Shown here: piece by piece, positions 2,686 to 61,043 of the stretch | How the letters are laid out: each line of letters starts with the position of its first letter | Position numbering within the stretch: the first letter of the stretch is position 1 | Virus record (IMG/VR): IMGVR_UViG_3300036770_003738 | Location: 20,593-84,592 of that record | Strand: one strand, 5' to 3' | Length of the DNA stretch: 64,000 nt | Origin: a virus | Translations under genes and position numbers: made by a program | Notes under the pieces: model-generated | The model's database searches: none | Seen by the model: only the letters and a program-made list of their open reading frames with translations | What the model was told of the DNA's origin: nothing

Positions 2686-3618
2686 ATGATAGAATTTTTA
2701 GATCCTAGTCGCTTTTATACTAACAGACAGTATCTGACACAGTGGTTTTCTGAAGATACATTGTGTATTACAGATAACGATTTTGAAAACATAGAGCACA
2801 CAAAAACTCTGTTGAACAAACACGCTAACCCCAATCGCATACTTGACATCACACACAATCCGTGGGTAGATAGCAGAGTGCCATTGTCTATTACACCGGT
2901 GTTGACTAACAACTATGAGTTCTTTTATCGGCCACAATCTGGGGTCCGTTTCTTTCCGCTATTCTTGTGGATGTACAGTTTGAGAAATTCCTTGTGGTGG
3001 AACACATTTTGCTTTGATCAATCTGCTGACAAAACACAAGGCCTCATGTGTTTGAACAACAGACCAAGACCACACAGAACTCAAGTATGGGCAGAGTTCA
3101 ATCGCCGAGGTATCATTGATCAGTGTATATTCAGTTTTACTGAACCAGAGCATCATGAAAAAGATCAGTACTCATATCCTTATCCTTTGAATATTACTGG
3201 TGAACATTTTGATCCCACTAGAAACGACATAGGTGTCGGACACTCAGTTTATAGAGATTGTGCTGTGAACTTGACGACAGAAACAGCAACAGACTTGGCC
3301 TACATCAGTGAAAAAACCTGCAAGACATTTGTGGCCAGACAAATCCCTGTGTTGATTGGCAGTGCGGGAATCAACCAGTTCTTGTCTGATATAGGGCTTG
3401 ACATGTTTTCTGATCTTGTGCCTTGGACCACTTGGGACAACGAAACTGATGATCGTGTTCGAGTGCTGAAGATTGTGGATTTTGTGGAGTCATGGTTGCG
3501 TTCAGGGACCATGCTAGCAGACTATCGCCGTGTACTGCCCAGGGTGGAAGCTAACAAACGCTACTTTCACAGCGAAGCATTTAGAAATCGCATCATGACG
3601 CAGATGGATTCAATCTAA
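2686..3618 (+). CDS. Putative glycosyltransferase-like protein (GT10/GT-B-like C-terminus); paralog of 28715..29785
   Basis: NLTTET...YISEKT...P...GLDMF segment resembles the GT10 'EN...YITEK' motif. Confidence 0.45.
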   Translation: MIEFLDPSRFYTNRQYLTQWFSEDTLCITDNDFENIEHTKTLLNKHANPNRILDITHNPWVDSRVPLSITPVLTNNYEFFYRPQSGVRFFPLFLWMYSLRNSLWWNTFCFDQSADKTQGLMCLNNRPRPHRTQVWAEFNRRGIIDQCIFSFTEPEHHEKDQYSYPYPLNITGEHFDPTRNDIGVGHSVYRDCAVNLTTETATDLAYISEKTCKTFVARQIPVLIGSAGINQFLSDIGLDMFSDLVPWTTWDNETDDRVRVLKIVDFVESWLRSGTMLADYRRVLPRVEANKRYFHSEAFRNRIMTQMDSI

Positions 3619-3737
3619 GTCAGATGAAAGCCCTAACATCCAGGCAGGTCAGTCCAGGAGTAGTTAGGGCCAATAATATAGTTTAACGACCTTGCTAATA
3701 TAGTATCTTATATTGGATACATAGTTATTATAGCAAG

Positions 3738-4886
3738 TTATACCTTGTACCACGAGAGATATTGGGTGATTTTTTCAGTCACACTTGTCCAGTCTCCTCT
3801 AACAGGTTGTCTGAACAATCGTGCGCTCACATACCAAGGGCTAGAATCCCGACCCAACAACCAGCGCCAGTCTGTAGCATAGGCATTGAGCATGAGCCAA
3901 GCAGGACGGCCTAGCGCACCTGCGAGATGCGTAATAGCAGTGTCCACGCTGATCACCACATCTAGGTTCATCATGAGTGCAGCAGTGTCAGCAAAGCTTT
4001 GCACAGCACCAGGATAACGACTTACACCGGCGTCAGCTAGTGCTTGTTCTTCTTCAGGCTCGGCATCTATTTGTAGGTTGATCCACTCGTATTGCGGATT
4101 CTTCCGGATCATGTCTAGCATGGTTTTAAAAGGCACACTCTTGTGTTGATTCAACCATGAATCACGACGCCCGCTCCAGCTAAAGCCTACACGCATGCGA
4201 GTTTTTGGGCCTAGCTTTTGTTGCCATACCCGTACTTGATTAGCATCTGCGTTCAAATAGCTTTGTACCTGAGGCAAGTTTTCTACGGTAACACCTAGTA
4301 TGCCCGGGATGCTCATAATAGGAACCCAGGTATCAAACTCCCCAGGATCGTCTAAGTAAGTGCCAGTCCAGGCAATTATATCACTACGTCCTAGCAACGG
4401 TACTAGCCCGTCTGTGACTTGTAGTTTGATACGAGCACCCATCTGATGCAAGTTGTAGATGAATCTTGAAAACTGAATGTTGTCTCCATGACCTTGTTCA
4501 CCTACAACCAAGATTGTTTGGCCTTGCAAGCTTTCTCCGCGCCAACGAGGTTGCGAGTGCCGAGGTTCAGTACCAGCTAAGTGTTCGTACTCCCAACGAG
4601 TTTCGTAAGCTGGCCACCCTTGTTTGTAATCTCCTAACAACAAATGACACACAGCTAGATTGAAACGTGCAGTGATGTTTTTTGGATCTAGTACAGCAGC
4701 ATGTTGCAAAAACGGAACGGCTCTGTTTGGATAGCCTAGTTCGCGCATGACATTGCCGTAGTTGTTGAATGCTGCAGCCGAATCGGGATCTTGCACAAAT
4801 GCCATTGCATAGCATTGCAGTGCCTTTTCGGGTTGTTGTGCAGCACGAAGCTGATTGCCTTGTTCGATTAGTTCGTTGGAATTCAT
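3738..4886 (-). CDS. TPR-repeat glycosyltransferase (GT9/heptosyltransferase-like C-terminal domain)
   Basis: N-terminal TPRs (AFNNYGNVMRELG, ARFNLAVCHLLLGDY); EQGHGDNIQF, VDTAITHLAGALG, DWRW, WY-S-RLFRQ motifs; start reassigned to the ATG at 4886, 4 nt after a minus-strand TAAATA. Confidence 0.85.
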   Translation of the reverse strand: MNSNELIEQGNQLRAAQQPEKALQCYAMAFVQDPDSAAAFNNYGNVMRELGYPNRAVPFLQHAAVLDPKNITARFNLAVCHLLLGDYKQGWPAYETRWEYEHLAGTEPRHSQPRWRGESLQGQTILVVGEQGHGDNIQFSRFIYNLHQMGARIKLQVTDGLVPLLGRSDIIAWTGTYLDDPGEFDTWVPIMSIPGILGVTVENLPQVQSYLNADANQVRVWQQKLGPKTRMRVGFSWSGRRDSWLNQHKSVPFKTMLDMIRKNPQYEWINLQIDAEPEEEQALADAGVSRYPGAVQSFADTAALMMNLDVVISVDTAITHLAGALGRPAWLMLNAYATDWRWLLGRDSSPWYVSARLFRQPVRGDWTSVTEKITQYLSWYKV

Positions 4887-4890
4887 CAAG

Positions 4891-4934
4891 TATTTAAGGG
4901 GTGCAAAACACAGTCTAGACATTTTTGCTAAATA
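4891..4934. promoter_or_regulatory. Divergent late promoters: TAAATA (-) 4891-4896 and TAAATA (+) 4929-4934
   Basis: Core of the T4-type late promoter upstream of both divergent genes. Confidence 0.7.
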
Positions 4935-4998
4935 TCTAGTCCGCAATACTGCGGCTTATGCTGAGATTAATACCCACAGCGTAGCGACTAGAACTCGC
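4935..4998 (+). ncRNA. Candidate structured cis-regulatory RNA in the 5' leader of 5024..5728
   Basis: Helices CCGCA/TGCGG, TTATGCTG/CAGCGTAG, and the alternatives TCTAGTC/GACTAGA versus GCGA/TCGC. Confidence 0.45.
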
Positions 4999-5023
4999 AG
5001 ACTTATTACAAGGAAACAAACAA

Positions 5024-5728
5024 ATGGGTCGTCCTCTAAAAATCAAAAAATCTACTACCAGTGACATTGGTTTCAATCCGTTTAGCGCATTAACTAACCC
5101 GGTGTATCCATCTGATCCTACTGTGTTCGATGGTACAGAATATCTTGGCGTGGTTGGCGGTGCAAATGCCAACGTAGCGTCTGCTGCGTATCCAGTGGTC
5201 AAGTGTCGTGCTTTTATCACCGGTACAGGGGCAGAAGATGATGCTTACATCATTACACAAAAAGGTACTATTAAGTATCAAGTGGCTACAGTGACCGCAG
5301 TGGCTGACGAAGATCTTGTAGCAGGCCAAGCTTATCGAATTTTAACAGTAGGCACAACCGACTGGGTAGCGTGTGGTGCAAGCGATTCCAACGCTGCAAT
5401 CGGTGATATCTTTACTGCAACAGCAGCAGGTTCAGGCACAGGTACTGCTCAAGCAGTCGGCACATGCATTTTGGCCAATGAAGCTGATTCTGCACTAACC
5501 GAAGGCAACATGAACATTACTTTCAGCACTGGCGACAGTACTGCTCAGTTGATCAGCCGTCTGACCAACAAGTTTGCACTAGACTACAGCACACCGCCAG
5601 TTCGCTATGCTGTAAACTTCTTCAGTGACGAAGGTTACGAAATCAAGAGCGGAACCACTGGTGCAACCAACGTTTCGGGACAGCAAAACCAAGTCAGCTT
5701 GGCGATTGTAGAGAACTTTACATCGTAA
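5024..5728 (+). CDS. Hypothetical virion structural protein
   Basis: Late promoter, AAGGA SD, Thr/Ala/Gly-rich beta-type composition. Confidence 0.6.
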   Translation: MGRPLKIKKSTTSDIGFNPFSALTNPVYPSDPTVFDGTEYLGVVGGANANVASAAYPVVKCRAFITGTGAEDDAYIITQKGTIKYQVATVTAVADEDLVAGQAYRILTVGTTDWVACGASDSNAAIGDIFTATAAGSGTGTAQAVGTCILANEADSALTEGNMNITFSTGDSTAQLISRLTNKFALDYSTPPVRYAVNFFSDEGYEIKSGTTGATNVSGQQNQVSLAIVENFTS

Positions 5729-5742
5729 TATCTCAAACCCTC

Positions 5743-5777
5743 AAATCCTCTCAGCTACATACTGGGAGGATTTTTTT
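5743..5777 (+). terminator. Rho-independent terminator; the loop carries a late-promoter-like TACATA
   Basis: AAATCCTCTCAG-CTACATA-CTGGGAGGATTT followed by a T-run. Confidence 0.75.
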
Positions 5778-6365
5778 ATGAGCAGAGCATTTGTATTGGG
5801 CAACGGAATCAGCCGTCAAGGTCTGGACTTAGAACTACTAAAACAGTTAGGGCAAGTTTACGGTTGCAACGCAATCTGTAGAGAGTTTGTGCCAAATGTG
5901 TTGGTCAGCACAGACACTCCGATTAGCAAAAGCATACAAGAATCAGGGTATTCTCAGCAGCACATGATGTATACTAGAAAACCATTGCCTGCATTGGGTG
6001 CTCGCAGAATACCACAAGAATATTATGGGTATAGTTCGGGACCTGCAGCAGTTGGGATAGCAGCAATTGACCGTAATGCTGCAATATATCTAATAGGTTT
6101 TGATATGGGCCCAACTACTACTGGTAAATTTAATAACGTCTATGCGGACTCGGAGTTTTATAAAGCTAGTTCAGCTCCTCCTACCTTTACAGGCAATTGG
6201 GCTACTCAAATAGTAAAAATTTGTCGAGATTTTCCCAAAATAAAATTCATTAGGGTCGTAGGGAAAACTACTGCAGAAATTGCTGCACTAACTAACATAC
6301 CCAATTTGTATCATATGCCAATTGAAGACTTCCTAAACAGAATAAATAACACAAAGGAACTCTAA
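5778..6365 (+). CDS. Maf/DUF115 (MptE-like) putative glycosyltransferase
   Basis: AFVLGNGIS, YGCNA, SSG, IYLIGFD motifs typical of the Maf/sialyltransferase-like fold. Confidence 0.6.
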   Translation: MSRAFVLGNGISRQGLDLELLKQLGQVYGCNAICREFVPNVLVSTDTPISKSIQESGYSQQHMMYTRKPLPALGARRIPQEYYGYSSGPAAVGIAAIDRNAAIYLIGFDMGPTTTGKFNNVYADSEFYKASSAPPTFTGNWATQIVKICRDFPKIKFIRVVGKTTAEIAALTNIPNLYHMPIEDFLNRINNTKEL

Positions 6366-9332
6366 ATGTCTATCTATAAGCGTGTCAGTGGGAATCTTGT
6401 TGTTCAAACCATAGGTAATACAGATTCAATCACTTTTCAAGGCGCAAGCGCCAACACTGCCACGGTGGTTATCGATGGCAACTTAACCGTAACTGGCAAT
6501 GCATCGCTGACAGGCAACATTGCAGGCGACAAAATCTTTAACGGCACTACTAGTATTGAAATACCTACGTCAAATGGCAACGCAAATATTAGCGTAGGTG
6601 GTGTGTCTAATGTCTTTGTAACTACTTCAACAGGTGTTGAAGTAGCCGGTACTGCAAGTGCAACCGGCAACGTTACAGGTGGCAATATTGTCACATCAGG
6701 ACAAGTTACAGCAACTGATACAGTCACTGGCGGCAACATTACTACGCCGGGTAACATTAATCTAATTAGAGCTTCGACCGCTACAACAACTCCAATCCTT
6801 CGATTTACAGATTCTAATACTGCAGTTACTAGTTTAGGTTCAAACATTGGTGCAGTCGAATGGTATGTATCTGACCCAACTGGTGCAGGTGCCCGCGTTA
6901 CTGCTGCCGTTAAAGCAGTGTACGCCGATGGCTCAGGCAATGCAAATATTCTAATACAAACTGCTAGTGGTGCTAGTCTAACTAATCGAATAGTAGTATT
7001 AGGAGACACCGGCAACGTTGGTGTTGCTAACAGTGCTCCTTTGCATGGGTTTGCAGTGTCAGGGACTATGTATGGATCTAGTACACTTGACGTAGTAGGC
7101 AACGTAGCAGGCGGTAATATATCTACAGCTGGTCTAGTAACTGCTGGCGGCAATGTAACTGGCGCCAACGTGTTCACTGCAGGGGTGGTTAGTGCAGGTG
7201 GCAATATTACTGGCGCTAACATTAGCGTAGCTGGCGGCGTAATAGGTGGCGCTGGCGGAGTAAGTGTAACTGGTAACGTCACCGGCGGTAACTTAATCAT
7301 TAACGGCACTATGAGTGCGTCAGGTAACTTAGCCACAACAGATATCACTGCAACCACCCTGAATGCTACTGGCAATATCACCGGCGGAAATATAAAAACA
7401 CTAGGCATTAGCAATGTTGGTACTAGCATCGTTACAGGAACACAAACAGTAATTGGTAATATCACTGGTGCAAACGTTAACGCTGGCATTGTATCAGCCA
7501 CGGGCAACGTTGACAGCTTGAACGTTAATACCGGTCTAGTATCAGCAACAGGTAACATTATATCTGCACCTGGCGGCTACTTTGTTGGCGACGGCGGCTA
7601 CCTAAGCAACATCACGGTAGTATCAAACGTGTCTGTAACACAGTTGGCCAGCGGAACCACAAACTGGACCATTCGCGGTTCAGGCGGCAATATTACTGCA
7701 GATATTGGCGGCGCATCAAACACAGTTGTGTTTTACGGTGGCGGCGTTGACATTACTGGTGCGTTTAGTGCAGTAGGCAACGTCACAGGCGGAAACATCA
7801 ACACAGGTGGGTTAGTATCAGCAACCGGAAACATTATAGGCGGCAATATTAGCGGCGCAACTGGTACCTTTACTACAGTTATTGGTGCAGCAAACGCTAC
7901 TAATTTAACGTCTGGCATTGTACCAAGTGATCGATTAATCGGCCAATATACTATTGATATTAATGGTAACTCAGTGATTGCTAATACTGTGGCTACAGCA
8001 GCACAGCCCAACATCACTAGCGTTGGTATATTAACAAGTTTGAGCGTTTCAGGAAACGTAGTTGGCGGAAACATCAACACCGCCGGTTTGGTTAGTGCAA
8101 CCGGTAACGTACGAGGTGGAAACATTACTACCGCTGGTGCAGTTAGTGCAACTGGTGCAATTACCGGCGCTGCAATTTCTGGTACAACCATCTCTGGTTC
8201 AGGCAATGTAACAGGCGCCAATATCAATACAGCTGGATTGGTGTCGGCTACCGGCAACGTCAATGGTGGTAATGTTAATACTACAGCACTAAGTTTGAGC
8301 GGCAACGTTATTTCGGCGCTAAATGCATCGAGTTCGATAACAGCTGGAACAACTGTAAGTGCCATTGGTAACGTCAGAGGCGGAAACGTTACTACTGGTG
8401 GCCAAATGTCAGCAACTGGCAATATTACAGGTAGTTACTTTATTGGTAACGGTAGTCAATTGTCAGGGATTGACGCTACAAGTATTCAAAACGGAACAAG
8501 CAATGTTCGTGTTGTAAGCTCTGGCGGCAATGTAGCAGTTGGAATCGGCGGAACATCCAATGTGGCTGTTTATGCAACCACCGGTCAATATGTTACAGGA
8601 TTGATTTCTGCAAGCGGCAACGTTACAGGTGCATATATCATTGGTAATGGTAGTCTGTTGTCAAGTATTACTGGTGCCAACGTTACAGGTACAGTAAGTA
8701 GTGCTACTACCGCAACCAGTGCAACATCAGCAACCACAGCAGGTACAGTAACCACAGCGGCACAGGGTAACATTACTAGTGTTGGCACCTTAACTAGTCT
8801 AGCAGTATCTGGTAATACCACTAGCGGTAATCTTAGTGTAAGCACTGGTACAGTTACTGTTGGCAATATTGTTAATGCAAACGGCAACGGAGTTGGTAAC
8901 GTTGGTAGTTCAACTACATATTTTAACACAGTATTTGCTAAAGCAACCAGCGCACAATATGCTGACTTGGCTGAAAAATTCCTAGCAGACCAGCCTTATC
9001 AGCCTGGTACAGTTCTAATATTTGGTGGCGAGTTAGAAGTTACAGAGTCAATGACCTATGCTGACCACAGAGTTGCTGGTGTAGTTTCTACAGATCCTAG
9101 TTACTTGATGAACGCCGGATTAGAAGGACAATACGCTGTGGAGCTAGCTTTGCAAGGTCGTGTGCCTTGTGCAGTCGAAGGCCCTGTAGAAAAAGGCGAC
9201 TTACTAGTATCTGCACCAAATGGTCGAGCAAGAGCAGCAAAATCTGCACAAGCTGGTACAATCATTGGTAAGAGTTTAGAAAACTTCAACGGTGCAGTTG
9301 GTACAATTGAAATCGTTGTAGGCCGCGATTAA
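6366..9332 (+). CDS. Tail fibre-like repeat protein (988 aa) with C-terminal YADLAE chaperone-like domain
   Basis: SATGN(V/I)xGGN(I/V) repeats; C-terminal YADLAE...GVVST-P...LQGRVPC...KGDLLVS...IIGKSLE; TAAATA at 6343-6348 and AAGGA SD. Confidence 0.8.
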   Translation: MSIYKRVSGNLVVQTIGNTDSITFQGASANTATVVIDGNLTVTGNASLTGNIAGDKIFNGTTSIEIPTSNGNANISVGGVSNVFVTTSTGVEVAGTASATGNVTGGNIVTSGQVTATDTVTGGNITTPGNINLIRASTATTTPILRFTDSNTAVTSLGSNIGAVEWYVSDPTGAGARVTAAVKAVYADGSGNANILIQTASGASLTNRIVVLGDTGNVGVANSAPLHGFAVSGTMYGSSTLDVVGNVAGGNISTAGLVTAGGNVTGANVFTAGVVSAGGNITGANISVAGGVIGGAGGVSVTGNVTGGNLIINGTMSASGNLATTDITATTLNATGNITGGNIKTLGISNVGTSIVTGTQTVIGNITGANVNAGIVSATGNVDSLNVNTGLVSATGNIISAPGGYFVGDGGYLSNITVVSNVSVTQLASGTTNWTIRGSGGNITADIGGASNTVVFYGGGVDITGAFSAVGNVTGGNINTGGLVSATGNIIGGNISGATGTFTTVIGAANATNLTSGIVPSDRLIGQYTIDINGNSVIANTVATAAQPNITSVGILTSLSVSGNVVGGNINTAGLVSATGNVRGGNITTAGAVSATGAITGAAISGTTISGSGNVTGANINTAGLVSATGNVNGGNVNTTALSLSGNVISALNASSSITAGTTVSAIGNVRGGNVTTGGQMSATGNITGSYFIGNGSQLSGIDATSIQNGTSNVRVVSSGGNVAVGIGGTSNVAVYATTGQYVTGLISASGNVTGAYIIGNGSLLSSITGANVTGTVSSATTATSATSATTAGTVTTAAQGNITSVGTLTSLAVSGNTTSGNLSVSTGTVTVGNIVNANGNGVGNVGSSTTYFNTVFAKATSAQYADLAEKFLADQPYQPGTVLIFGGELEVTESMTYADHRVAGVVSTDPSYLMNAGLEGQYAVELALQGRVPCAVEGPVEKGDLLVSAPNGRARAAKSAQAGTIIGKSLENFNGAVGTIEIVVGRD

Positions 9333-9343
9333 TAGCTAAAACC

Positions 9344-9389
9344 TAAATAGGCAACTCCTGGTAAATACACTAGATGACCAGGATTACCT
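9344..9389 (+). promoter_or_regulatory. Tandem late promoters (TAAATA 9344-9349 and 9362-9367) with an SD-sequestering hairpin
   Basis: TCCTGGT (9356-9362) pairs with ACCAGGA (9377-9383), which contains the AGGA SD. Confidence 0.65.
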
Positions 9390-15300: not shown

Positions 15301-15389
15301 ATATCGTCGGCACAACCAGCATAAGTATTAACGGACAGACATTGGCCACAGTGGATGACGCAACAGCTTTAGCAATAGCATTAGGATAA
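9390..15389 (+). CDS. Long tail fibre/baseplate-attached repeat protein (1999 aa) with T4 gp9/gp10-like N-terminus
   Basis: N-terminal DTGAQANDGTGEPLRDAFTAVNENFTEIY motif; GNxTGGN and AAQPNITSVGTL repeats. Confidence 0.82.
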   Translation: MTQQIIDTGAQANDGTGEPLRDAFTAVNENFTEIYTAGPVGSNVVISGNTIAVTGVNNNLVLKANGIGNIQANSSIVPSIDSAYNIGSPASKFDTVYAGYFSGNGSQLTGVVSSAGSFIANGISNVSIADASGPVTVKIGATSNLAVFSSTGVTVAGNVSGTYILGNGALLTGITTSYGNSNVAAYLPTYSGNLNPDIISAAGNITGANINTNGNVRAQYYIGDGGFLSNITVSSNVAATQLANGSTVLSIDGADGNIVATVNGTSNIAVISDQALTLSANLLPAANATYNLGSPAAAFNDLYLSNSTIYLGNATISANSTAVILTNESGQQTVIEGAGTIEPYGDSNVSAYLASGTDAANIITIGNISGGNFIGSGSALTSITGANVTGTVANATYAATAGLATSASTVTTAAQPNITSVGTLTALSITGNVTADTYFIGNGALLTGLPASYGDSNVVTLLDAFGSNTIVTTGNINGGAFNGRGLFNGTSSVEIPTVNSSILVGVNGVGSVEFTEGGINALGITALSNITGGNLTTQGTISALGNVVTDGYFVGNFAGNISGNLTVPGSNTQVLFNVNGSAGAVAGFTYNTDSNTMAVLGVMSAQGNVIAANAVISGLATVTGNVIGGNLVTAGQVSAFGNIIGDYVIGNGAFLTGLPATYGNTEVAAYLPTYTGALAALAGDVVTTANVQGAYILGNGSGLSAITGANVTGTVANATYADTAGSATSATSATTAGTVTTASQPNITSVGTLSSLEVTGNTTSGNLYSNGSLTAVTFAYLNTIVPRTNSTVLIAAGNIALTGEINHTGANLNTTVIVASGNINGGNLVTGGVVDAESVDANSAIIGGNLTVNGNVTSTTNLTLRPGIGSNINFPVLGGNITFESATGNAGFPGAVYTGDQVVTGNIGATGFVSVGGNVTAGTGSFFIGDGGLLSNISVAAGSTILNGNSNVSVAAAGNVTVSVGGVNSVLTVTETGANIAGTISASGNIDGSNINGNGSGLSSITGANVTGTVANATYADTAGSATTAGTVTTAAQPNITSVGTLSSVTVTGNIDGANINGNGSGLTSITGANVIGIVANATYADSAGSATTATTATTAGTVTTAAQPNITSVGTLSSVTVTGNISGGNLDTTGIINAASLSTSGNAVIGGDLVVNGNLAYLNINALSVEDPIISIGRGPNNAPLIANDGKDRGELLYYYSGSEKSAFIGFDDTTNKLFAASDVSVANEIVSVNSYGTFVVGALEGTSVSVTGNIDGGNINGNGSGLSSITGANVTGTVANATYATSAGSATTATTATTATTAGTVTTAAQPNITSVGTLTSVTVTGNIDGGNINGNGSGLSSITGANVTGTVANATYATSAGSATSATTATSATTAGTVTTAAQPNITSVGTLTSVTVTGNIDGGNINGNGSGLSSITGANVTGTVANATYATSAGSATTAGTVTTAAQPNITSVGTLTSVTVTGNIDGGNLTTGGQVSAAGNITGGNVNTAGLVQSALLSATGNVIGGNIVSQDQIQGVSLNASSNITGGNLVTSGLITATGSIATSSSLTVATTVSATGNITGGNINTSGSITATGGINVANVVTGGLITATGNVNGGNINTGGLVSSTGDVIGGNLVTAGLVVATGNVSGANIFATGTVSATGNLDATGNVNATNFVGTLVGDIALTGSNSQVLFNLDGVIGSDTGFVYDYAANALTVGGNIATANGGSLVVSGIVTATGNIISVANIAGGNISSSGQISAAGNVTGGNIITSALVQGAIVSATGNVTGGNITTAGLATVTGNVSGGNINTGGLVSATGNVIGGNIVTAGSISAAGNIDGGNINTAGLISVTGDVTGANVVSATTFSGTTVTVTGNVTGGNINTGGLISSTGNVIGGNINTAGLVSSSGNVIGGNIVTAALVQGATVSATGNVIGGNVNTAGLVSATGNINGGNVNAAGLSLSGNVLSVINSTSNINTTGNITANNIVGTTSISINGQTLATVDDATALAIALG
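13143..13808 (+). repeat. Near-identical intragenic tandem repeat (units start at 13143, 13365, 13587, 13782)
   Basis: gtaacaggtaacattgatggtggcaac... recurs with periods of 222, 222 and 195 bp; a further close copy lies near 12351. Confidence 0.9.
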
Positions 15390-15392
15390 AAA

Positions 15393-26592: not shown

Positions 26593-26614
26593 AGTAATAC
26601 TATTTATGTACCGG

Positions 26615-27808: not shown

Positions 27809-27815
27809 GTAACTG

Positions 27816-53551: not shown

Positions 53552-53558
53552 GGAAAAG

Positions 53559-54659
53559 ATGAGTTATTTGTTTACTAGTGAAAGCGTGAGCGAAGGCCAC
53601 CCAGACAAAGTGGCTGATGCCATCAGCGATGCTGTGCTAGATTTAGTAATGGCACAGCAAAACTCTGCACTGCGTTGTGCATGTGAAACGCTGGTTACTA
53701 CCAATAGAGTAGTTGTTGCTGGTGAGTACAAAGGCACATTAAGCGATCAGGAAGTCGAACAAACCGTTCGTGAAGTTGTGCGAGATGTGGGCTACGAACA
53801 ATCGGGATTTGATTGGCGCACACTAGAAGTTACCAATTTACTACACGGGCAAAGTGCTGACATTGCCTTGGGCACAGACTCATTTGGCGCAGGCGACCAA
53901 GGTCTAATGTTTGGTTATGCATGCAATGAAACTGATAGCTACATGCCCAGCGCCATTTACTGGAGTCACTGTATTGTAGAAGGCCTGGCGCAAGCCCGTA
54001 AACATGGTGTAATTTCCTGGCTCGGCCCTGATGCCAAGAGCCAAGTTACATTTGAGTACGACGAACTCAATCGTCCAGTGCGCATTGCCAAGGTTGTTTG
54101 CAGTACACAGCACAGAGAATCAGTAGATATTACAACAGTTCGAGTTACGGTTGAAGCAATGATTCGCAACATCCTACCCGGAAAGTATGTGGACAATGCT
54201 ACGGAATTTTATATTAATCCTACTGGTCGTTTTGTTATTGGTGGTCCAGATGGTGATACTGGTCTTACTGGCCGGAAGATTATCGTGGACACCTACGGCG
54301 GTTATAGCCCGCACGGTGGCGGCGCTTTTAGTGGAAAAGACCCCACCAAAGTAGACCGATCAGCAGCTTACATGATGCGTTACATTGCTAAAAACATTGT
54401 GGCCAAAGGACACGCACCTTGGGCAACTTGCCAGATTAGTTATGCTATTGGTATGAAGGATCCTATGAGTTTTTATATTGAAACTCAAGATGCAGCATTG
54501 AGTCGCAGACTTACCGCGCAGGTCCAAGATTTAGTTGATTTAACACCACAGGGTATTATCAAACGATTTGATCTGTTCCGACCTATCTATAGTCAGACTA
54601 CCAACTATGGACACTTTGGCAAGGCCGATCTTCCTTGGGAAAAGATTGACCTGTTCTGA
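53559..54659 (+). CDS. metK: S-adenosylmethionine synthetase
   Basis: FTSESVSEGHPDK, GAGDQG, GGGAFSGKD and YGHFG signatures; AAGGA SD. Confidence 0.97.
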   Translation: MSYLFTSESVSEGHPDKVADAISDAVLDLVMAQQNSALRCACETLVTTNRVVVAGEYKGTLSDQEVEQTVREVVRDVGYEQSGFDWRTLEVTNLLHGQSADIALGTDSFGAGDQGLMFGYACNETDSYMPSAIYWSHCIVEGLAQARKHGVISWLGPDAKSQVTFEYDELNRPVRIAKVVCSTQHRESVDITTVRVTVEAMIRNILPGKYVDNATEFYINPTGRFVIGGPDGDTGLTGRKIIVDTYGGYSPHGGGAFSGKDPTKVDRSAAYMMRYIAKNIVAKGHAPWATCQISYAIGMKDPMSFYIETQDAALSRRLTAQVQDLVDLTPQGIIKRFDLFRPIYSQTTNYGHFGKADLPWEKIDLF

Positions 54660-54679
54660 CGCTGCGTTTAAATAGCAAT

Positions 54680-55444
54680 ATGAAAATTGTTATCGTTACT
54701 GGCGGATTTGATCCAGTTCACAGCGGTCACCTGGCTTACTTTCAAGCAGCAAAGAAGTTAGGCGACAAACTAATAGTAGGACTCAATTCAGATGCATGGC
54801 TTGCCCGTAAAAAAGGCAAGCCTTTTATGCCTATGAGTGAACGTTTTGCATTGATTAGTGCATTGCGTATTGTAGATGAAGTAATCACCTACAACGACGA
54901 CGATGGTTCTAGTAGAGATGCTATAAGAAAAATCAGACTCAAGTATCCCAACGCTGAAATTATCTTTGCCAACGGCGGAGACCGTACAAAAGAAAACATT
55001 CCCGAAATGGATGTAGCCGACTCTGGCACTACATTTGTATTTGGAGTAGGCGGAGAAGACAAAAAGAATTCTAGTAGCTGGATTCTAGAAGACTGGAAAA
55101 AACCCAAGACTGAACGTACCTGGGGTTATTATCGTGTGCTACACGAAGTTGGCACAGAAACCAAACTCAAAGAACTTACAGTAGCTCCTAAGACTTGTTT
55201 GAGCATGCAACGACACGATCAACGAGCAGAGTTTTGGTTCGTAGCTGAGGGCACAGCCACAGTGTACACACTAGATGAATCGTCAACTGATCAAGAAGTT
55301 AAATGCCATCTTTCGGCGCATGAGCACACATTTATCACTTGTAAAGAATGGCATCAGTTGTGCAACGAAACAGACCAACCTCTTCGACTGATTGAGATTC
55401 AGTATGGTGCTAACTGTGTAGAAGAGGATATCGAACGCCGATGA
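54680..55444 (+). CDS. Cytidylyltransferase-like (TagD/HldE-II fold) fused to a mannose-6-P-isomerase-type cupin
   Basis: GGFDPVHSGH (HxGH), GLNSD, ANGGDR, SSS; then ERTWG.Y, LSMQRH..RAEFW, IEIQYG...EEDIER; TAAATA at 54669-54674. Confidence 0.88.
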   Translation: MKIVIVTGGFDPVHSGHLAYFQAAKKLGDKLIVGLNSDAWLARKKGKPFMPMSERFALISALRIVDEVITYNDDDGSSRDAIRKIRLKYPNAEIIFANGGDRTKENIPEMDVADSGTTFVFGVGGEDKKNSSSWILEDWKKPKTERTWGYYRVLHEVGTETKLKELTVAPKTCLSMQRHDQRAEFWFVAEGTATVYTLDESSTDQEVKCHLSAHEHTFITCKEWHQLCNETDQPLRLIEIQYGANCVEEDIERR

Positions 55445-56124
55445 AAGCTATTCCGGTTTATATTGGCTACGATCCTCGAGAAGCCATTGCATACCATACT
55501 TGTGCTAACAGTATTATTCGCAACAGCAGTAGACCTGTAGCAATTGTGCCTATTGCTTTGAATCTATTTAAAGAATACAACGAAACACACACCGACGGTA
55601 GCAATCATTTTATCTATACTCGATTCTTGGTTCCTTATCTCAACGACTTTACTGGACATGCTATCTTTATTGATGGTGATATGATTGTTCGTGGTGATAT
55701 TGCTGAACTATGGGACTTGCGTGATGTCAGCAAAGACGTACAAGTAGTCAAGCACGACTATCAAACACGTATGGCTGAAAAGTATCTAGGAGCAAAAAAT
55801 GAAAACTATCCTAGGAAAAATTGGTCTAGTGTGATCTTATGGAACTGTAACAGTTTCCCTAATAGACGTTTGATGCCTGACTTTGTACAACGATCAACTG
55901 GCGCCGAGTTGCACAGATTTACCTGGCTTGAAGATGAACGTATCGGCGAACTGCCGAGAGAATGGAACTGGTTGCCCGATGAATACGGGCCAAATACCGA
56001 CGCTAAGTTACTGCACTACACACTTGGTACGCCATGCTTTCAAGAGTTTGCTGATACTCCACAAGGCAACGAGTGGCATCGCGAGCGCATACTGACAGAA
56101 TACTGTCAACAAAGGAACATATGA
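55441..56124 (+). CDS. GT-A glycosyltransferase (GT8/CDI-like)
   Basis: IGYDPRE, RFLVP, FIDGD, YPRKNWSS, WNWL, HYTLG motifs. Confidence 0.85.
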   Translation: MKAIPVYIGYDPREAIAYHTCANSIIRNSSRPVAIVPIALNLFKEYNETHTDGSNHFIYTRFLVPYLNDFTGHAIFIDGDMIVRGDIAELWDLRDVSKDVQVVKHDYQTRMAEKYLGAKNENYPRKNWSSVILWNCNSFPNRRLMPDFVQRSTGAELHRFTWLEDERIGELPREWNWLPDEYGPNTDAKLLHYTLGTPCFQEFADTPQGNEWHRERILTEYCQQRNI

Positions 56125-57170
56125 CATTACCATTAGCTGTGGTCGAACGCTGGCCCATGGAGGAATACAAGAATCAACATCCAGATGATCTAGTAGCTGC
56201 GTTGAAACACATCAATCGGGATGCGTTGGCTTTGTATTATGAACTACAGGATCTGTACCAACAATTTCGTAATACCAATGATAAAGACGACAAGCGCCTG
56301 GACAAGTTGTTAGATGTAGAAATTCGCAATAAAGAAGAACGCCTGTTTAGACTGATTAAGTTTAACGATTATCCTGCTATGGTTATGGCGGCATATCCTG
56401 ATGCCCAATTTATAGACAGCTACACTTATAAACGTGCTCGTAAAACAATCACAGATGATATTCTAATACGTGGTATTAGTTCAGGAGATTATGCCAAGCA
56501 TGCTCTAGAAACCAATAGAAACTTTTACTTTATTGAAACCGGCTACTTAGGCAATTATCGCTGTGACAACAATCAAACAGGCAGAAAGATCTATCATCGC
56601 ATAGAAAAAAACTCCATGCAGCAGAGCCGCATTATGGATGTGCCCGACGATCGGTGGCGTGATCTATGTGCGTTCAACCCTAGTCTAAATTATCAAGGCT
56701 GGAAACGCCCTGGCGGCAAGATCTTGTTAATCATGAGCACAGACAAACCCTTTGAATATTACGGTACTACCAAGGATGCCTGGGTTGATTCAACCATTGC
56801 TACTCTAAAACAACACAGCGACAGAGAGATTGTGATCAGACAAAAAGCTGGTCGCGGCGAGCGCACCAATGACACAATCTACGACGCACTGGACCAAGAT
56901 ATCTACGCTGTAGTAACCTATAACAGTATTGCCGCAGTAGAAGCAATACAGTATGGTATTCCTGCTTTTTGCACAGCACCCACTGCAGCTAGCCCTGTAA
57001 CCACAGCAGACTTCTCACAGATAGAAAATCCTCCGAGACTGAGCGAAGACATCATTTACAAATGGTTGAGCAGTGTGGCCTATGGACAGTTTAGTTTGAA
57101 TGAAATATTGACAGGCAAGGCCTGGAGTTTGGTACAAGAAAATGAACAGCGCCCGACCTTTAGTTATTAA
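56121..57170 (+). CDS. KpsS/KpsC-like (capsule synthesis) GT-B protein
   Basis: ETGY...R, IVIR.K, TYNSIAAVEA...GIP pattern; start MTLPL after AAGGA. Confidence 0.55.
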   Translation: MTLPLAVVERWPMEEYKNQHPDDLVAALKHINRDALALYYELQDLYQQFRNTNDKDDKRLDKLLDVEIRNKEERLFRLIKFNDYPAMVMAAYPDAQFIDSYTYKRARKTITDDILIRGISSGDYAKHALETNRNFYFIETGYLGNYRCDNNQTGRKIYHRIEKNSMQQSRIMDVPDDRWRDLCAFNPSLNYQGWKRPGGKILLIMSTDKPFEYYGTTKDAWVDSTIATLKQHSDREIVIRQKAGRGERTNDTIYDALDQDIYAVVTYNSIAAVEAIQYGIPAFCTAPTAASPVTTADFSQIENPPRLSEDIIYKWLSSVAYGQFSLNEILTGKAWSLVQENEQRPTFSY

Positions 57171-58092
57171 AAGCTATCTCAGCAGTTTGCCCCGGCACAT
57201 CAACGGCGAAGAAAAAATCAACGCACTCACTTTCTTTGCTGAAGGTGCTGCTCGTTGCGGCGACTCGGCTACAACTACACACAGCCAGCATTATGAATCA
57301 TGTGATGTAGGGGCAATCATTGGCAACGCATTTGATGCTAATCCGGGCAAGGTTAACTTGCCGCACTACAAGGTGCGCAAGATGGTGATGGAGCAGCAAG
57401 CAGCTCGCAACAGGTATTGGCTCAGCATTGACAGCAATGTGTTCATCTACAAGGACAAGTTAAATCCGCATAGGTATCTGCGCTACAGTTTCAACGGTGT
57501 GTTTCCTGCTACTGGTATCTATTGCAACGAATCGCCTGGAGAAGAAAATTGGGCCCGCATGAGAGCTCATTATAACATGGACTTGAAACCATGGCGCACT
57601 AAAGGCAATCATATCTTGATCACACTGCAACGTCCTATGGGTTGGAGCATGCGAGGACAAGATCTGATGAATTGGCTAGAGTCTACGTTCAAACGCATTA
57701 GACAACACAGTGATCGTCCTATTGTGATACGTTGGCACCCGGGCGACTGGAAGAACTATCCTAAGTATGGCAACATCTTGGCCAAATACAATGCTGTAGT
57801 CAGTCCACAAGAGAGACATATAACAGAAGATTTAGTAAATTGTTGGGCCTTGGTGTGTCACAATTCTACGCCCAGTGCAGTTGCTCCTATAGAAGGCATT
57901 CCTGCATTTATAACAGATGACCCTAGTTACAGCCAGGGCGGTGATGTAGCTAACACAGATTTTGCTTTGTTGGAAAAACCCAATTTACCTGACCGCGAAC
58001 AATGGATCAGGCGTCTGGCGCAGTGTCACTGGAGCTTCGAAGATCTGCGTTCAGGTCGCTGCTGGGCTCACATGCGGCAGTGGGTCAAGTGA
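57142..58092 (+). CDS. KpsS/KpsC-like GT-B protein
   Basis: LITLQ, IVIRWHP, HNSTPS...EGIP motifs. Confidence 0.6.
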   Translation: MNSARPLVIKSYLSSLPRHINGEEKINALTFFAEGAARCGDSATTTHSQHYESCDVGAIIGNAFDANPGKVNLPHYKVRKMVMEQQAARNRYWLSIDSNVFIYKDKLNPHRYLRYSFNGVFPATGIYCNESPGEENWARMRAHYNMDLKPWRTKGNHILITLQRPMGWSMRGQDLMNWLESTFKRIRQHSDRPIVIRWHPGDWKNYPKYGNILAKYNAVVSPQERHITEDLVNCWALVCHNSTPSAVAPIEGIPAFITDDPSYSQGGDVANTDFALLEKPNLPDREQWIRRLAQCHWSFEDLRSGRCWAHMRQWVK

Positions 58093-58699
58093 TATGCTGA
58101 TAAATGTAGTCGTGCTTGATGTTATCAACCATCTGATAGCCCCATGACAACAACAGTGCATGAGCTTCGGCTCGTGTTTCTTGTTCAACTACCAGCACAG
58201 GATAAGACAGTTTGATATACTGTTCACCGCCTTGTAACACTTGTAGTTCAAACCCTTCTACGTCAATCTTGACAAAATCTGCCGGGGGGAGATTTAGGTC
58301 ATCTAGTCGTTGTAATGGAACCTTGACATCCCCTTGGTCACTTACTCGCGTTTTTCCATAGTTATCTGGAAAACGTTGCATCATTACTGTGCCTGCTTCT
58401 GCACCTAGTGCAGTGTGAAATATTTTTGTAGCAGGAGCATTGATCTTTAGATATTCGCAGTGCAGTTCTATTGGTTCGATAGCAAAGTTTTGTTTGAATT
58501 GTTGTTCTAGTGTGTGACTCCATAAGCCAAAGTTAGCACCTATGTCCACGCTGACCCTGAATTGTTTAACATAGCTCAGTGCTAGTCTGCGCACAGGTCC
58601 TTGATATTCTGCTGGTTCGCCTACTTTGGCATTGCGTTCAATAAACTTGCTGAAATGATCTTCGTCGTCAGGCAACCAGTAGTTGTGCAATTGTTTCAT
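58085..58699 (-). CDS. FkbM-family methyltransferase
   Basis: VDIGANFG, AIEP, RLDD, KIDVEGFE motifs. Confidence 0.92.
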   Translation of the reverse strand: MKQLHNYWLPDDEDHFSKFIERNAKVGEPAEYQGPVRRLALSYVKQFRVSVDIGANFGLWSHTLEQQFKQNFAIEPIELHCEYLKINAPATKIFHTALGAEAGTVMMQRFPDNYGKTRVSDQGDVKVPLQRLDDLNLPPADFVKIDVEGFELQVLQGGEQYIKLSYPVLVVEQETRAEAHALLLSWGYQMVDNIKHDYIYQHIT

Positions 58700-59481
58700 T
58701 GGTATTTGCCTTGCTCGTGTTTGAATATATCTAGCTCTTTGCGTTTGCCTTTGGCGCTCCAGATTGCGCTTTCGGGTCGCATAGCCCAGTCAATATAGCT
58801 CATAGGCAGCAAACCTTTACGATACAATGGAACCAATCTGTCCAGTATCACTTGGTCCAAGAACCAATAAAGATCATTCTTTTCTATGCTGGATTTCAAG
58901 TCACTAGCATAATGCTGCAAGAAATCGTGACTGCGCGGCCGTCCGTTGAACAACACAGCACCGGCTAGATGTGTGCCATCTTTGGGTTTTTCGTACAAAT
59001 AAAAATCTGACTGCCCTAGGTCATGCTCAAACGGTCCGCGCACCAAACCGTCTACATCAATGGCCAAACAACGCTGACCTAACTGTAGCACTTGAGCTAG
59101 ACGCACAAATCTGGCACAAGCATAATAGGTCTGGCGAATCAACTTTTCTGCTTCAACTGGTCCACCGACTCGTGCCTTTTTGCTCATTTGTTGTTGACGA
59201 GGGTTCTCAAATACAGTGCGGTTGATCCAGTATTGTGCAATTTCTGCCCAGTTGATCTGGTCAAGGTATTCGTATGTGCAACTTACACCGGTTTGATTGC
59301 AAAAATCAATCTGGTCTGGTCTTGGGTTGTAGATGTGGATATGGACTCCGTAATTAGGAGTGTTGTTTCGCACACTACGAATTAACGGGCGAGCATGAAC
59401 GTCAAAATAAACAGGGTCAGCAGCGGCGTACAAAAAGAATTTGTCTTGTGCTAGCTTTCCTTCTAGTGGTGGCATATGCAT
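58696..59481 (-). CDS. Putative GT-A glycosyltransferase
   Basis: CARF, IDVD (DxD), AG and WFLDQ motifs. Confidence 0.55.
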   Translation of the reverse strand: MHMPPLEGKLAQDKFFLYAAADPVYFDVHARPLIRSVRNNTPNYGVHIHIYNPRPDQIDFCNQTGVSCTYEYLDQINWAEIAQYWINRTVFENPRQQQMSKKARVGGPVEAEKLIRQTYYACARFVRLAQVLQLGQRCLAIDVDGLVRGPFEHDLGQSDFYLYEKPKDGTHLAGAVLFNGRPRSHDFLQHYASDLKSSIEKNDLYWFLDQVILDRLVPLYRKGLLPMSYIDWAMRPESAIWSAKGKRKELDIFKHEQGKYQ

Positions 59482-59482
59482 A

Positions 59483-59494
59483 TTAAATATTTAA
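59483..59494. promoter_or_regulatory. Palindromic bidirectional late promoter TTAAATATTTAA
   Basis: Perfect 12-bp palindrome with TAAATA on both strands, between divergent genes. Confidence 0.7.
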
Positions 59495-59496
59495 CT

Positions 59497-60339
59497 GTGA
59501 TCAAAACACTTGCTTATTTTCCACAACAGGTTGCACTAAATGGCAATGTTCCTTTTAATGCGCTGTTAGATTCTGCCCAAGCAGCAGGCATACAAACAAA
59601 AGAAAACTCATATACAGCAGATGCTGCAGTGATATGGAGTGTGCTATGGCACGGTCGCCTTAAAACAAATCAAGCGGTATACGAACATTATAGGCAACAA
59701 AACAAACCAGTAATCATTGTTGAAATAGGTGCATTGTATCGTGGACAAACTTGGAAAGTGTCAGTAAACAACGTCACTGCTGAAGGCTTTTATGGTCACC
59801 AAGATCAACTGGACTGGGATCGCGCTAGGAAACTAAAAATTAGCCTAGCGCAACAAACGCAAACAACTCCTCATGTGATAATTGCATTGCAGCATTCTCA
59901 CAGCTTGCAAGTGGCCAGCATTGCAGACATGACTCAATGGGTGAGTTGCACAGTCGACAAACTCAAAACAGTCACTGATCGCCCTATAGTGGTACGACCA
60001 CATCCTAGAAGCAGATGTGCATTGCCTCCGGGTGTAACAGTAGAGCAGCCACAAAAGTTGGCAGGAACTTATGACAGCTACAACATGCATTTTGATTGTC
60101 ATGCAGTAGTTAACTATAATTCGGGCCCAGGTATTCAAGCAGCTATAGCAGGTGTGCGGCCCTTGGTAGATTCAACCAGTTTGGCTGCGCCGGTTGGTGT
60201 TAACTGGACAAACATTGAACAACCTTACACAGTAGATCGAGATCGCTGGCTAACCGAAATTTGCCACACCGAATACACAGTAGAAGAAATACAAAGAGGA
60301 TTATGGCTAAACAGACTAGCACCAGCATTGACGGCGTGA
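59497..60339 (+). CDS. KpsS/KpsC-like GT-B protein (probable GTG start at 59497)
   Basis: IIALQ, IVVRPHP, YNSGPGIQAAIAGV motifs. Confidence 0.6.
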   Translation: MIKTLAYFPQQVALNGNVPFNALLDSAQAAGIQTKENSYTADAAVIWSVLWHGRLKTNQAVYEHYRQQNKPVIIVEIGALYRGQTWKVSVNNVTAEGFYGHQDQLDWDRARKLKISLAQQTQTTPHVIIALQHSHSLQVASIADMTQWVSCTVDKLKTVTDRPIVVRPHPRSRCALPPGVTVEQPQKLAGTYDSYNMHFDCHAVVNYNSGPGIQAAIAGVRPLVDSTSLAAPVGVNWTNIEQPYTVDRDRWLTEICHTEYTVEEIQRGLWLNRLAPALTA

Positions 60340-61043
60340 CCGACTGTGCATGTGTGATTCACAGCACAGGATACGACTGGACTTATGTTGACCGACTATA
60401 CAGCATGTTGAGTCGTGCACTACCTGGCGGGATTCGCATGCATGTGTACACTGAAAAATCAAGACCTGTGCCTTCACACATGATCAAACATGTACTGCAT
60501 GAATGGCCTGGACTCGGCGGCCCCAAACGCAGCTGGTGGTACAAAATGCAATTGTTTAACCCTGCACATTTTCGTGGTCAACTGTTGTACTTTGATCTGG
60601 ACTGTGTGATTTTGCGTGACCTGAGTTGGATTACTTCACTTGATCGCAATTTGTTCTGGGGCATTAGAGATTTTAAATATCTTCAGCGCCCTGGCTACGC
60701 AGGCATTAACAGCAGTACCATGTGGTTCAACACCGAACGTTATGCCTGGCTCTGGGACCGATTCAATAGTGTGCCCATTGAGCAAGCACGGTCTGGATGT
60801 CAAGGTGATCAAGACTACATCACAAAAAACGTTGACCTTAGTCAGCTGAGATTTTTTGAAGATCGTTATTTCCAAAGCTATCGCTGGCAGTGTCTAGACG
60901 GAGGATATGACTTTAGATATCGTCGATATCATAAACCTGGCACAGGCGTGCAAATAGCCGGAGATACTGCAGTGGTAGTGTTCCATGGCAGTCCCAACCC
61001 ACATCAAGTACACGACCCCGAAATAGTAAAACTTTGGTGCTAG
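60303..61043 (+). CDS. GT-A glycosyltransferase (GT8-like)
   Basis: WWYKMQLF, YFDLD, NSS, GDQDYI, FHGSPNP motifs. Confidence 0.8.
   Translation: MAKQTSTSIDGVTDCACVIHSTGYDWTYVDRLYSMLSRALPGGIRMHVYTEKSRPVPSHMIKHVLHEWPGLGGPKRSWWYKMQLFNPAHFRGQLLYFDLDCVILRDLSWITSLDRNLFWGIRDFKYLQRPGYAGINSSTMWFNTERYAWLWDRFNSVPIEQARSGCQGDQDYITKNVDLSQLRFFEDRYFQSYRWQCLDGGYDFRYRRYHKPGTGVQIAGDTAVVVFHGSPNPHQVHDPEIVKLWC

Follow-up and report, generated by a model that had tools for sequence, protein, structure and literature searches.

The systems closest to the genes described here are those of flagellin O-glycosylation, in which the soluble cytoplasmic enzymes Maf and FlmG act on the protein of a long filament. FlmG combines a TPR domain, which binds flagellin, with a glycosyltransferase domain (passage in PMC7591256), and Maf enzymes accept CMP-Kdo, as stated in part of PMC11339370. 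Among phages, virion glycosylation by phage enzymes is documented, in the literature that we examined, for mycobacteriophages only, whose particle proteins reportedly carry glycans at their C-termini (Freeman et al., 2023, as summarized in a passage of PMC12619734); the relevant part of that article itself concerns another lineage, the moraphages, and lists possible glycosyltransferase roles only. Here, we describe a stretch of viral DNA of 64,000 nucleotides (the window), bases 20593-84592 of the 84,592-base IMG/VR record IMGVR_UViG_3300036770_003738, in which genes for glycosyltransferases and for sugar-tailoring enzymes are dispersed, and which an earlier note had read as a single late-expressed system of about 20 genes for the glycosylation of the virion.

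Instead of one such system, we find four modules with different inheritance (A to D; the numbers that serve as gene names are positions in the window). Each of these sets of genes for soluble sugar-transferring and tailoring enzymes is inherited on its own, most of them seem to be switched on along with the particle genes, and their likely target is the phage's own fibers or other particle proteins. What we show directly are the families and folds of the enzymes, their solubility, the linkage of their genes and a conserved promoter box. As the best explanation we tentatively favor a late cytoplasmic glycosylation of virion proteins by modules A and D. Open reading frames were present at or near all coordinates given in the earlier note, and 13 of the 19 enzymes that it named are backed by family or fold matches (3738, 5778, 55441, 56073, 57142, 59476, 54680, 58085, 27816, 42846, 44506, 53478, and 43958); three gave weak matches, and in the other three motifs were all that we found.

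Judged by its genes, the source of the window is an uncultured T4-like jumbo myovirus, that is, a giant freshwater phage; the record is 25% complete according to CheckV. The large terminase shares 54% identity with its counterpart in the Pseudomonas jumbo phage PA5oct and 50-53% with those of Phosso and Atu_ph07. A cyanophage origin was ruled out since these three phages are the nearest relatives in this protein. The gene order was drawn from PHROG and Pfam scans of the window and was compared by tblastn with five large related records, G001 (320 kb, 92% complete) and G002 to G005. In addition, we inspected 80 IMG/VR loci around homologs of gene 5778, for which the denominators given below are the loci with enough flanking sequence, and 80 loci around homologs of the GT8 gene of module D. 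Fifteen of the latter contain both flanking genes; the 11 colinear loci were counted and four rearranged ones left out.

The first gene of module A (3738..4886, minus strand) encodes a TPR protein with a GT9-like glycosyltransferase domain, an assignment that draws on Pfam, TIGR02193 and synteny. Its likely start is the ATG at 4886, which yields a protein of 382 amino acids and has the hexamer TAAATA, a candidate promoter box discussed below, 4 nt upstream. Pfam detects TPR families and GT9 (PF01075) at 25-26 bits (26.3), above the cut-off of 22, with the GT9 match spanning just 32 residues (317-348 of the protein, corresponding to 188-219 of the C-terminal domain). The GT9 signature D-T-x-x-x-H-L-A is present in the C-terminal domain, and the protein matches the heptosyltransferase I model TIGR02193 (E 4.8e-5). 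WaaC aligned over the same GT9 stretch (E 0.42) in a PDB search with a profile of the C-terminal domain; in a query with the whole protein TPR matches swamped the result. The architecture resembles that of FlmG, in which the TPR domain is joined to a GT-B domain, while the transferase domain of 3738 carries the GT9 signature. Orthologs of the gene exist in all five large relatives.

Gene 5024 (g5024; 5024..5728, plus strand) encodes a conserved protein of 234 amino acids that is rich in Ser, Thr, Gly and Ala and matched no Pfam, PHROG or NCBIfam family. It is a candidate for an abundant particle protein or an acceptor. Its C-terminus, N-[VF]-T-S (window 5714-5725), is invariant in six of six sequences and follows a variable region, so that a possible modification site may be envisaged here from the sequence pattern. 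The mycobacteriophage system offers a parallel, in that phage glycosyltransferase genes adjoin structural genes and glycans sit at C-termini; it differs from the genes described here in host and phage type, and the enzyme families in the window are others and far more numerous. Gene 5024 is followed by a terminator-like hairpin of 12 pairs and a T-run (window 5743-5777), which ends exactly at the ATG of gene 5778; compensatory changes preserve the stem in 5/5 relatives. Since this conserved hairpin abuts the start of 5778, it suggests a leaky terminator, by which g5024 would be made abundantly and the 5778 enzyme at a low level through read-through. A complex prediction for the TPR glycosyltransferase with g5024 scored 0.00 against a mark of 0.32, a result that weighs neither way.

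Gene 5778 (5778..6365, plus strand) stands directly before the first fiber gene, which begins at 6366, just as the earlier note had observed for what it called a Maf-like glycosyltransferase. The fold search proposed there was carried out and led to Maf for 5778 and to KpsC for 57142 of module D. The 5778 product has 195 amino acids, its relatives (449 in IMG/VR) are of about the same length, and its AF2 model (pLDDT 85) shows a small Maf/CstII (GT42)/MptE-like fold. The best Foldseek match is the Maf glycosyltransferase 5mu5 (E 9.6e-4), and in a VIA comparison with residues 272-513 of that structure, the central Maf_flag10 domain, 167 residues aligned at Z 11.9 and an rmsd of 3.7; CstII reached Z 9.3 and an MptE-like 6-hydroxymethyl-7,8-dihydropterin pyrophosphokinase (HPPK) Z 9.1. 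The likeness to Maf concerns this central domain only: the three-domain build of about 600 amino acids (the 5mu5 chain has 632 residues) is not found in 5778. The MptE-like family PF01973 did not match 5778 and matched two of 20 members of its family (best E 0.075).

Module A is fixed beside the fiber genes. The order of major head protein, TPR glycosyltransferase on the minus strand, g5024, 5778 and fibers is the same in 5/5 large relatives, and co-occurrence with fiber genes, which had been suggested as a check, was borne out in the wider sample: a fiber homolog lies downstream of the 5778 homolog in 49 of 58 loci, g5024 directly upstream of it in 65 of 75, and the TPR glycosyltransferase gene in divergent orientation in 45 of 61. 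The fiber cluster itself (6366..19491, plus strand) comprises the genes 6366, 9390, 15393, 15725 and 19099, the products of which are candidate acceptors. Those of 6366, 9390 and 15725 are mutual paralogs, and 15725 and 19099 match tail-fiber PHROGs. Ser and Thr make up 24-26% of the fibers, N-x-S/T sequons exceed those in shuffled sequences (z 3.6-4.2), and the identity to relatives is 36-69%. As in the Maf and FlmG systems, genes for soluble transferases thus stand beside those for long-filament proteins; the acceptor would differ in being a phage protein. The proposal that the virion is the substrate is the best-supported reading for this fiber-adjacent pair, and by analogy the TPR-plus-glycosyltransferase and Maf-like types, which are those of known protein O-glycosyltransferases, favor a protein target.

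Module D begins with a forward operon (54680..58092, plus strand) of an RfaE-II-like nucleotidyltransferase-cupin gene (54680), a GT8 gene (55441) and two KpsC-like genes (56073 and 57142). Its variable center (58085..59481, minus strand) consists of 58696, which encodes a DxD protein, followed by the FkbM methyltransferase gene 58085; its last part (59497..61043, plus strand) holds a third KpsC-like gene, 59476, and the GT-A-like gene 60303, assigned through paralogy and phrog_1962, respectively. A GTG at 59497 is the true start of 59476, as deduced from an ATG in G003 and a stop codon in G005. The accessory MetK gene for S-adenosylmethionine (SAM) synthetase (53559..54659, plus strand; open reading frame listed at 53478) encodes three S-AdoMet_synt domains (E 1e-33 to 1e-57).

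Pfam finds a cytidylyltransferase-like domain and a mannose-6-phosphate-isomerase cupin in 54680. The nearest family is rfaE_dom_II (E 3.4e-22), with glycerol-3-phosphate cytidylyltransferase at E 1e-12; the protein scores below the RfaE-II equivalog cut-off (TIGR02199, 78.8 vs. 181.5 bits) and above that of the general cyt_tran_rel domain (58.2 bits, cut-off 27.7). Gene 55441 belongs to GT8 (PF01501, 32.3 bits, cut-off 24.3; DGD at residue 78), and its product (55441-56124) is strongly conserved: at least 587 IMG/VR loci were matched, and the best 80 of them show 81-88% amino-acid identity, which exceeds the conservation of the fibers. FkbM is equally clear for 58085 (PF05050, 47.1 vs. 22.7 bits; TIGR01444, 73.2 vs. 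37.7). Of the three GT-A enzymes announced in the earlier note, only 55441 is firmly identified: 60303 matches the PHROG 'glycosyltransferase' family phrog_1962 (E 8e-19) and has a DxD motif, so that its identity is weak, and its family profile gave no usable PDB match, while 58696 shows the DxD motif only, its family having neither a usable PDB profile match nor a likeness to the GT8 family in hhalign (probability 0.14%).

The three proteins reported as KpsS/KpsC-like (56073, 57142, and 59476) are indeed mutual paralogs (E 5e-8 to 3e-12), and the model of 57142 is nearest to KpsC, KrkA and WbbB. KpsC is its best Foldseek match (E 9e-7), and KpsC, KrkA and WbbB structures fill the top 14 VIA rows (and the top 16 with the exception of one epimerase) at Z 11.5-13.7 with 237-258 residues aligned. 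The best unrelated GT-B fold scores 11.6, generic GT-B folds in general lying just about 2 Z lower. A profile of the KpsC-like family matched WbbB (E 0.02) over an HP...NS stretch, and Pfam Capsule_synth (PF05159) matched nothing at E<=10 anywhere in the 84.6-kb record. From the described KpsC/KpsS (GT107), WbbB (GT99) and KrkA enzymes the window thus has the closest folds and a WbbB profile match, but not a context of lipid or polysaccharide export.

Module D occurs in all three relatives that cover the site. In the 11 colinear loci, GT8, 57142, 59476 and 60303/60261 are each present 11 times, 54680 and 56073 ten times each, FkbM (58085) eight times, 58696 three times and MetK once; MetK is also missing from the three large relatives covering the site. 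Such a constant core with a variable center at a fixed site would be expected of a glycan under diversifying selection. In the center, the palindrome TTAAATATTTAA (59482-59493) separates the divergent genes 58696 (minus strand) and 59476 (plus strand), with TAAATA 6-7 nt before each start, an arrangement that the window shares with G005 and not with G002 or G003.

We treat modules A and D as one pathway mainly because the same five kinds of enzyme form a single late cassette in an unrelated phage, CcrColossus. A comparison of 59476 with cultured phages returned 17 records, 15 of them Caulobacter phages of the phiCbK-like type, including two Bertelyvirus records. In CcrColossus, the tail protein gp125 is followed by gp126 ('alpha-2,3-sialyltransferase'), the hypothetical proteins gp127 and gp128, gp129 ('nucleotide-diphospho-sugar transferase'), the methyltransferase gp130 and gp131 ('family 9 glycosyl transferase'), and then by endolysin and holin. 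By local tblastn, gp126 matches 5778 (E 0.002); gp128 corresponds to the KpsC-like genes (E 1e-16 to 7e-12; the neighboring gene gave a weaker match), and gp129 matches the GT8 55441 (E 1e-25). No BLAST match at E<0.01 connects gp130 with 58085 or gp131 with 3738. The cassette gp126-gp131, which is uncharacterized and for which a limited literature search turned up no paper, hence presents the 5778, KpsC-like, GT8, methyltransferase and GT9 kinds behind a tail gene; it is compact there and split here, and a TPR domain has not been reported for its GT9 enzyme.

The late promoter of phage T4 is the model for a late -10 box. The T4 late box TATAAATA is absent from the window, and we therefore analyzed the shorter TAAATA. 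It occurs 28 times on both strands, and of 56 gene starts 14 have it in the preceding 45 nt, compared with an expectation of 0.55. The enzyme genes behind such a box are 3738, 42846 (at 4 nt), 44506, 54680 (at 5 nt) and 58696 (at 6 nt); it was not found in the 45 nt ahead of 2686, 5778, 27816, 28715 or MetK. Conservation of the box was scored in orthologous upstream regions that otherwise diverge. The box is kept in 5/5 relatives each before the fiber genes 6366 and 9390, the neck, sheath and tube genes, 38689, 39210 and the TPR glycosyltransferase gene, and in the available orthologs of 42846 (3/3), 54680 (3/3), 48019 (2/2) and 58696 (1/1). It is absent in the orthologs of the head protein gene (0/4), of 5024 (0/5, within 45 nt) and 5778 (0/5), of gp32, UvsX and 53099 (0/3 each) and of the clamp-loader gene (0/1). 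By analogy with the T4 late promoter, TAAATA may be taken as the late -10 box of this lineage. The late-type promoters that the earlier note had assumed for most gene blocks are accordingly supported for modules A, C and D, which TAAATA heads, and not for the block 26669-27816-28715 (module B), which lies behind another box, TGCTATAAT. This extended -10 sequence is found near only two gene starts, at 26635-26643 before 26669, where G001, G002 and G005 keep it, and at 61561-61569 before the clamp-loader gene; it is a candidate for an early or middle promoter class of the lineage.

In the pathway that we infer, together with its timing, donors, order of steps and acceptor, the TPR domain of 3738 would recruit a particle protein, either the long Ser/Thr/Asn-rich fibers or the abundant g5024. 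The GT9-like and Maf-like enzymes would then attach the first sugars, the former using an ADP-heptose-type donor made with the help of g54680 and the latter a CMP-ulosonic acid such as Kdo. This acid would have to come from the host since the CMP-sugar synthetase family PF02348 (KdsB/NeuA) was found in none of five records, in which we also detected no gene for nonulosonic-acid synthesis. Next, GT8 and the KpsC-like enzymes would lengthen the chain; finally, FkbM would methylate the glycan, with MetK, where present, raising the supply of SAM. A bolder version of this proposal, which we consider doubtful though worth stating, is that this abundant lineage and, independently, the phiCbK-like Caulobacter phages employ flagellin-type (Maf-like, TPR-glycosyltransferase) and capsule/LPS-type (beta-Kdo-transferase-like, GT8, GT9) enzymes and build a methylated, acidic, LPS-core-like (lipopolysaccharide) glycan on their own fibers from host CMP-Kdo and ADP-heptose-type donors, a chemistry that would then be widespread among phages of Gram-negative bacteria and has gone unrecognized.

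If T4-like aquatic jumbo phages do glycosylate their fibers, views of their host range, of the stability of their particles and of recognition by grazers or immune systems would change. A minimal Maf-like enzyme of 195 amino acids and a TPR-targeted GT9 would be new soluble protein glycosyltransferases, and a function would be assigned to gene families that number hundreds to thousands of members in viromes. With the cassette of CcrColossus, a laboratory phage is at hand in which the idea can be tested.

Since GT8, GT9, RfaE-II-like and beta-Kdo-transferase-like enzymes are LPS and capsule families, one might think that the phage remodels the host envelope, altering LPS core, O-antigen or capsule, for instance to block adsorption of progeny or competitors, and leaves its own particle unmodified. 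KpsC, WbbB and the LPS-core enzymes work at the cytoplasmic face of the membrane, so that soluble enzymes would suit such a role. None of the 19 enzymes contains a TM-like (transmembrane) segment, however, and no flippase, polymerase, ligase, transporter or exporter turned up in the family scans of the window genes. The promoter box that these genes have in common with structural genes would leave little time for export to the surface, and module A is tied to fiber genes. We regard envelope remodeling as quite improbable. The related case of Gtr-type serotype conversion was ruled out because membrane proteins are lacking.

Several observations weigh against virion glycosylation by modules A and D as well. 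CstII uses a catalytic His; the 5778 family, in an alignment of 20 members, has no invariant or nearly invariant His. HPPK and thiamin-pyrophosphokinase folds reach VIA Z scores of 8-9 with the 5778 model, and, taken with the lack of an invariant His, this means that 5778 may be a kinase-type MptE-like enzyme and perhaps no glycosyltransferase at all. Its homolog in pelagiphage HTVC008M is located between UvsY and a helicase gene, away from fibers. Retaining beta-Kdo transferases are characterized by an HP motif and by a QxxxKD motif with the Asp nucleophile. A scan for Q...[KR]D was negative in 56073, 57142 and 59476; of these, the latter two have the HP motif, which 56073 lacks at the aligned position. 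The TAAATA box is not kept before 44506 (0/1) or 59497 (0/2 outside G005). The co-occurrence of modules A and D is documented in just three of three informative relatives because G001 and G004 end before module D. Finally, module D is flanked by gene 53099 and the clamp-loader gene, downstream of gp32 and UvsX, and so belongs to the replication and recombination region, the usual home of DNA-modifying enzymes.

This location between gp32/UvsX and the clamp loader points to a different possible target: module D might furnish a base of the phage DNA with a methylated oligosaccharide prior to packaging and thus protect the DNA from host nucleases. The strong conservation of GT8 and a weak deoxynucleoside-monophosphate-kinase-like gene at 31829 would agree with this. 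Five records (25, 92, 61, 37, and 29% complete) were scanned for ThyA (PF00303), TET/JBP (PF12851) and C5-methylases (PF00145), to our knowledge the known sources of the acceptor hydroxyl, with 0/5 positive for each; the records are incomplete, and an unrecognized base-activating enzyme may exist. The clusters for sugar hypermodification of DNA (Pyle et al., preprint; Lee et al., 2026) resemble module D in having several glycosyltransferases with a nucleotidyltransferase, heptose or Kdo chemistry and a place near replication genes, but they include partner enzymes, either a ThyA homolog or a C5-methylase with 5mYOX, that were not found in the five records. According to parts of 10.1101/2023.12.21.572611, phage clusters of a cytidylyltransferase and a glycosyltransferase put heptose, and others Kdo, on 5-hydroxymethylcytosine, and DNA-acting GT-A enzymes resemble LPS gluco- and galactosyltransferases, both of which speak for DNA; the KpsC-like, Maf-like and TPR-glycosyltransferase types are not among the DNA transferases described in those parts. 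Poly-arabinosylated DNA needs several glycosyltransferases, and the group transfer is late (PMC13326640). With such late, post-replicative sugar hypermodification on record, the argument of the earlier note that late expression speaks against DNA as the substrate is weak. The homologous cassette of CcrColossus is situated between a tail gene and the lysis genes, and the genome of this phage, which is complete, has neither ThyA nor TET/JBP. On balance, DNA hypermodification appears unlikely to us; if DNA were the target, it would be a hypermodification without any known hydroxypyrimidine-forming enzyme, and this would also be new.

Glycosylation of virion proteins by modules A and D leaves the other two modules and gene 2686 to be accounted for. 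Module B (26669..29785, plus strand, behind the TGCTATAAT box) comprises 26669 (phrog_11903), the radical SAM gene 27816 (Pfam; ortholog in G005 only, 1/5) and g28715. It looks early or middle because the sigma-70-type TGCTATAAT box heads 26669 as it does the clamp-loader gene, and it is probably unrelated to the glycan pathway. Full-length orthologs of 27816, 28715 and 30561 occur in just one of five relatives. The product of 28715 (28715-29785) belongs to a very large uncharacterized family that counts 2985 representative clusters at E<=1e-3, is present in several copies in related genomes and has invariant Arg, Glu and Glu-Lys residues. Its description as one of two GT10-like paralogs found no match in any profile search; the family is without a Pfam or PDB match, and Pfam searches with 28 of its remote members returned nothing relevant. 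The other supposed paralog, the variable gene 2686 (2686..3618, plus strand, behind the capsid-gene terminator), is weakly GT10-like: PF00852 matches below the cut-off (11.4 vs. 23.9 bits, E 0.008), its nearest named Atlas clusters are GT10 (0.85 and 0.84), which provides a lead only, and full-length orthologs exist in two of five relatives.

Module C (42846..46421, plus strand), which runs into the terminase gene, contains 42846, an oxygenase gene (43979-44524), 44506 and 45636, and is complete in G002 only and partial in G003 and G005. Genes 42846 and 44506 encode twitch radical SAM enzymes (NF033640, N_Twi_rSAM; 211 and 196.7 bits, cut-off 170). For 43958, features in the Atlas (0.95), structural comparison (TM 0.72-0.77) and an HxD motif indicate a P4H-like 2-oxoglutarate oxygenase, although the corresponding family PF13640 was found in none of the five records. 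Two SGNH proteins had been named: 45636 is a weak case (GDSL, E 0.0035 with Pfam and E 0.053 with the PDB), and the possible SGNH-like protein 30561 (30561..31289, plus strand, overlapping the stop of the neck gene) has GCSF and DxxH motifs only. Its family shows no relation to that of 45636 (hhalign probability 1.2%), and apart from an ortholog in G005 it has a 26% match in G004. Three protein homology searches, with 28715 and 58696 among the queries, returned only close, unannotated viral relatives. Module C appears late-type from its box, and nothing that we found links the radical SAM, oxygenase or SGNH genes of these modules to tailoring of a glycan, as the earlier note had supposed.

The patchy inheritance of such genes (27816, 28715 and 30561 in 1/5, 2686 in 2/5, MetK in 1/11, 58696 in 3/11) raises the question whether a common function exists at all. 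Unrelated accessory genes might have settled at permissive junctions, each with its own target such as small molecules, RiPP-like (ribosomally synthesized and post-translationally modified peptide) products or nucleotides. The sigma-70-type box of module B, the size of the g28715 family with its several copies per genome and without an assigned function, and the family names of the twitch/SPASM radical SAM enzymes, which are typically peptide maturases, all fit this notion. For modules B and C it probably holds. As an account of all the genes we consider it quite unlikely, given that the lineage preserves the cores of modules A and D together with their synteny and that CcrColossus has their families again in a single compact cassette.

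The genes of the window as a whole stand in the following order. The end of a prohead protease gene and a scaffold-like gene precede the major head protein gene at 1424 (PHROG and Pfam); the fiber cluster is followed by a large virion protein gene at 19495 and, on the minus strand, by genes for a NUDIX hydrolase, a gp15-like sheath stabilizer and a virion protein. A neck adaptor (29807), the sheath (32757), two tube genes (36106 and 36735), the terminase (46396) and a virion protein (48019) come next, and then a gp32-like single-stranded DNA-binding protein (49874), UvsX (51783) and a clamp-loader-like AAA gene (61569). Dispersal of the enzyme genes through the morphogenesis region, as originally described, is hence correct for 2686-5778, 27816-30561 and 42846-45636; the largest block, from 53478 to 61043, lies outside it, in the stretch from gp32/UvsX to the clamp loader. 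No match to phage records was found at the DNA level (megablast, 17 kb), and a search for tRNA genes in the window was negative.

Some further genes deserve mention. The open reading frame 25270-26808 (minus strand) is listed with a TTG start that is probably wrong, as PHROG matches begin at residue 75; its N-terminal extension is TM-like, and TAAATA stands 14 nt before an internal start near 26586. Between gp32 and UvsX, an open reading frame of 306 amino acids (50879-51799) belongs to no family and is without a full homolog among the five relatives; the sole match covers 55 residues in G001. The gene at 42390-42827, found in G003 and G005 only, encodes a staphylococcal-nuclease-like protein, the N-terminus of which resembles a signal peptide; it is the sole clearly exported product of the window. 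Amid the tail and neck genes lie those for a TnsA-N-like endonuclease (38242-38673), an Rv2179c-like 3'-5' exoribonuclease (31308-31832) and the NUDIX hydrolase (23448-23885), all three of which are kept in four or five of the five relatives.

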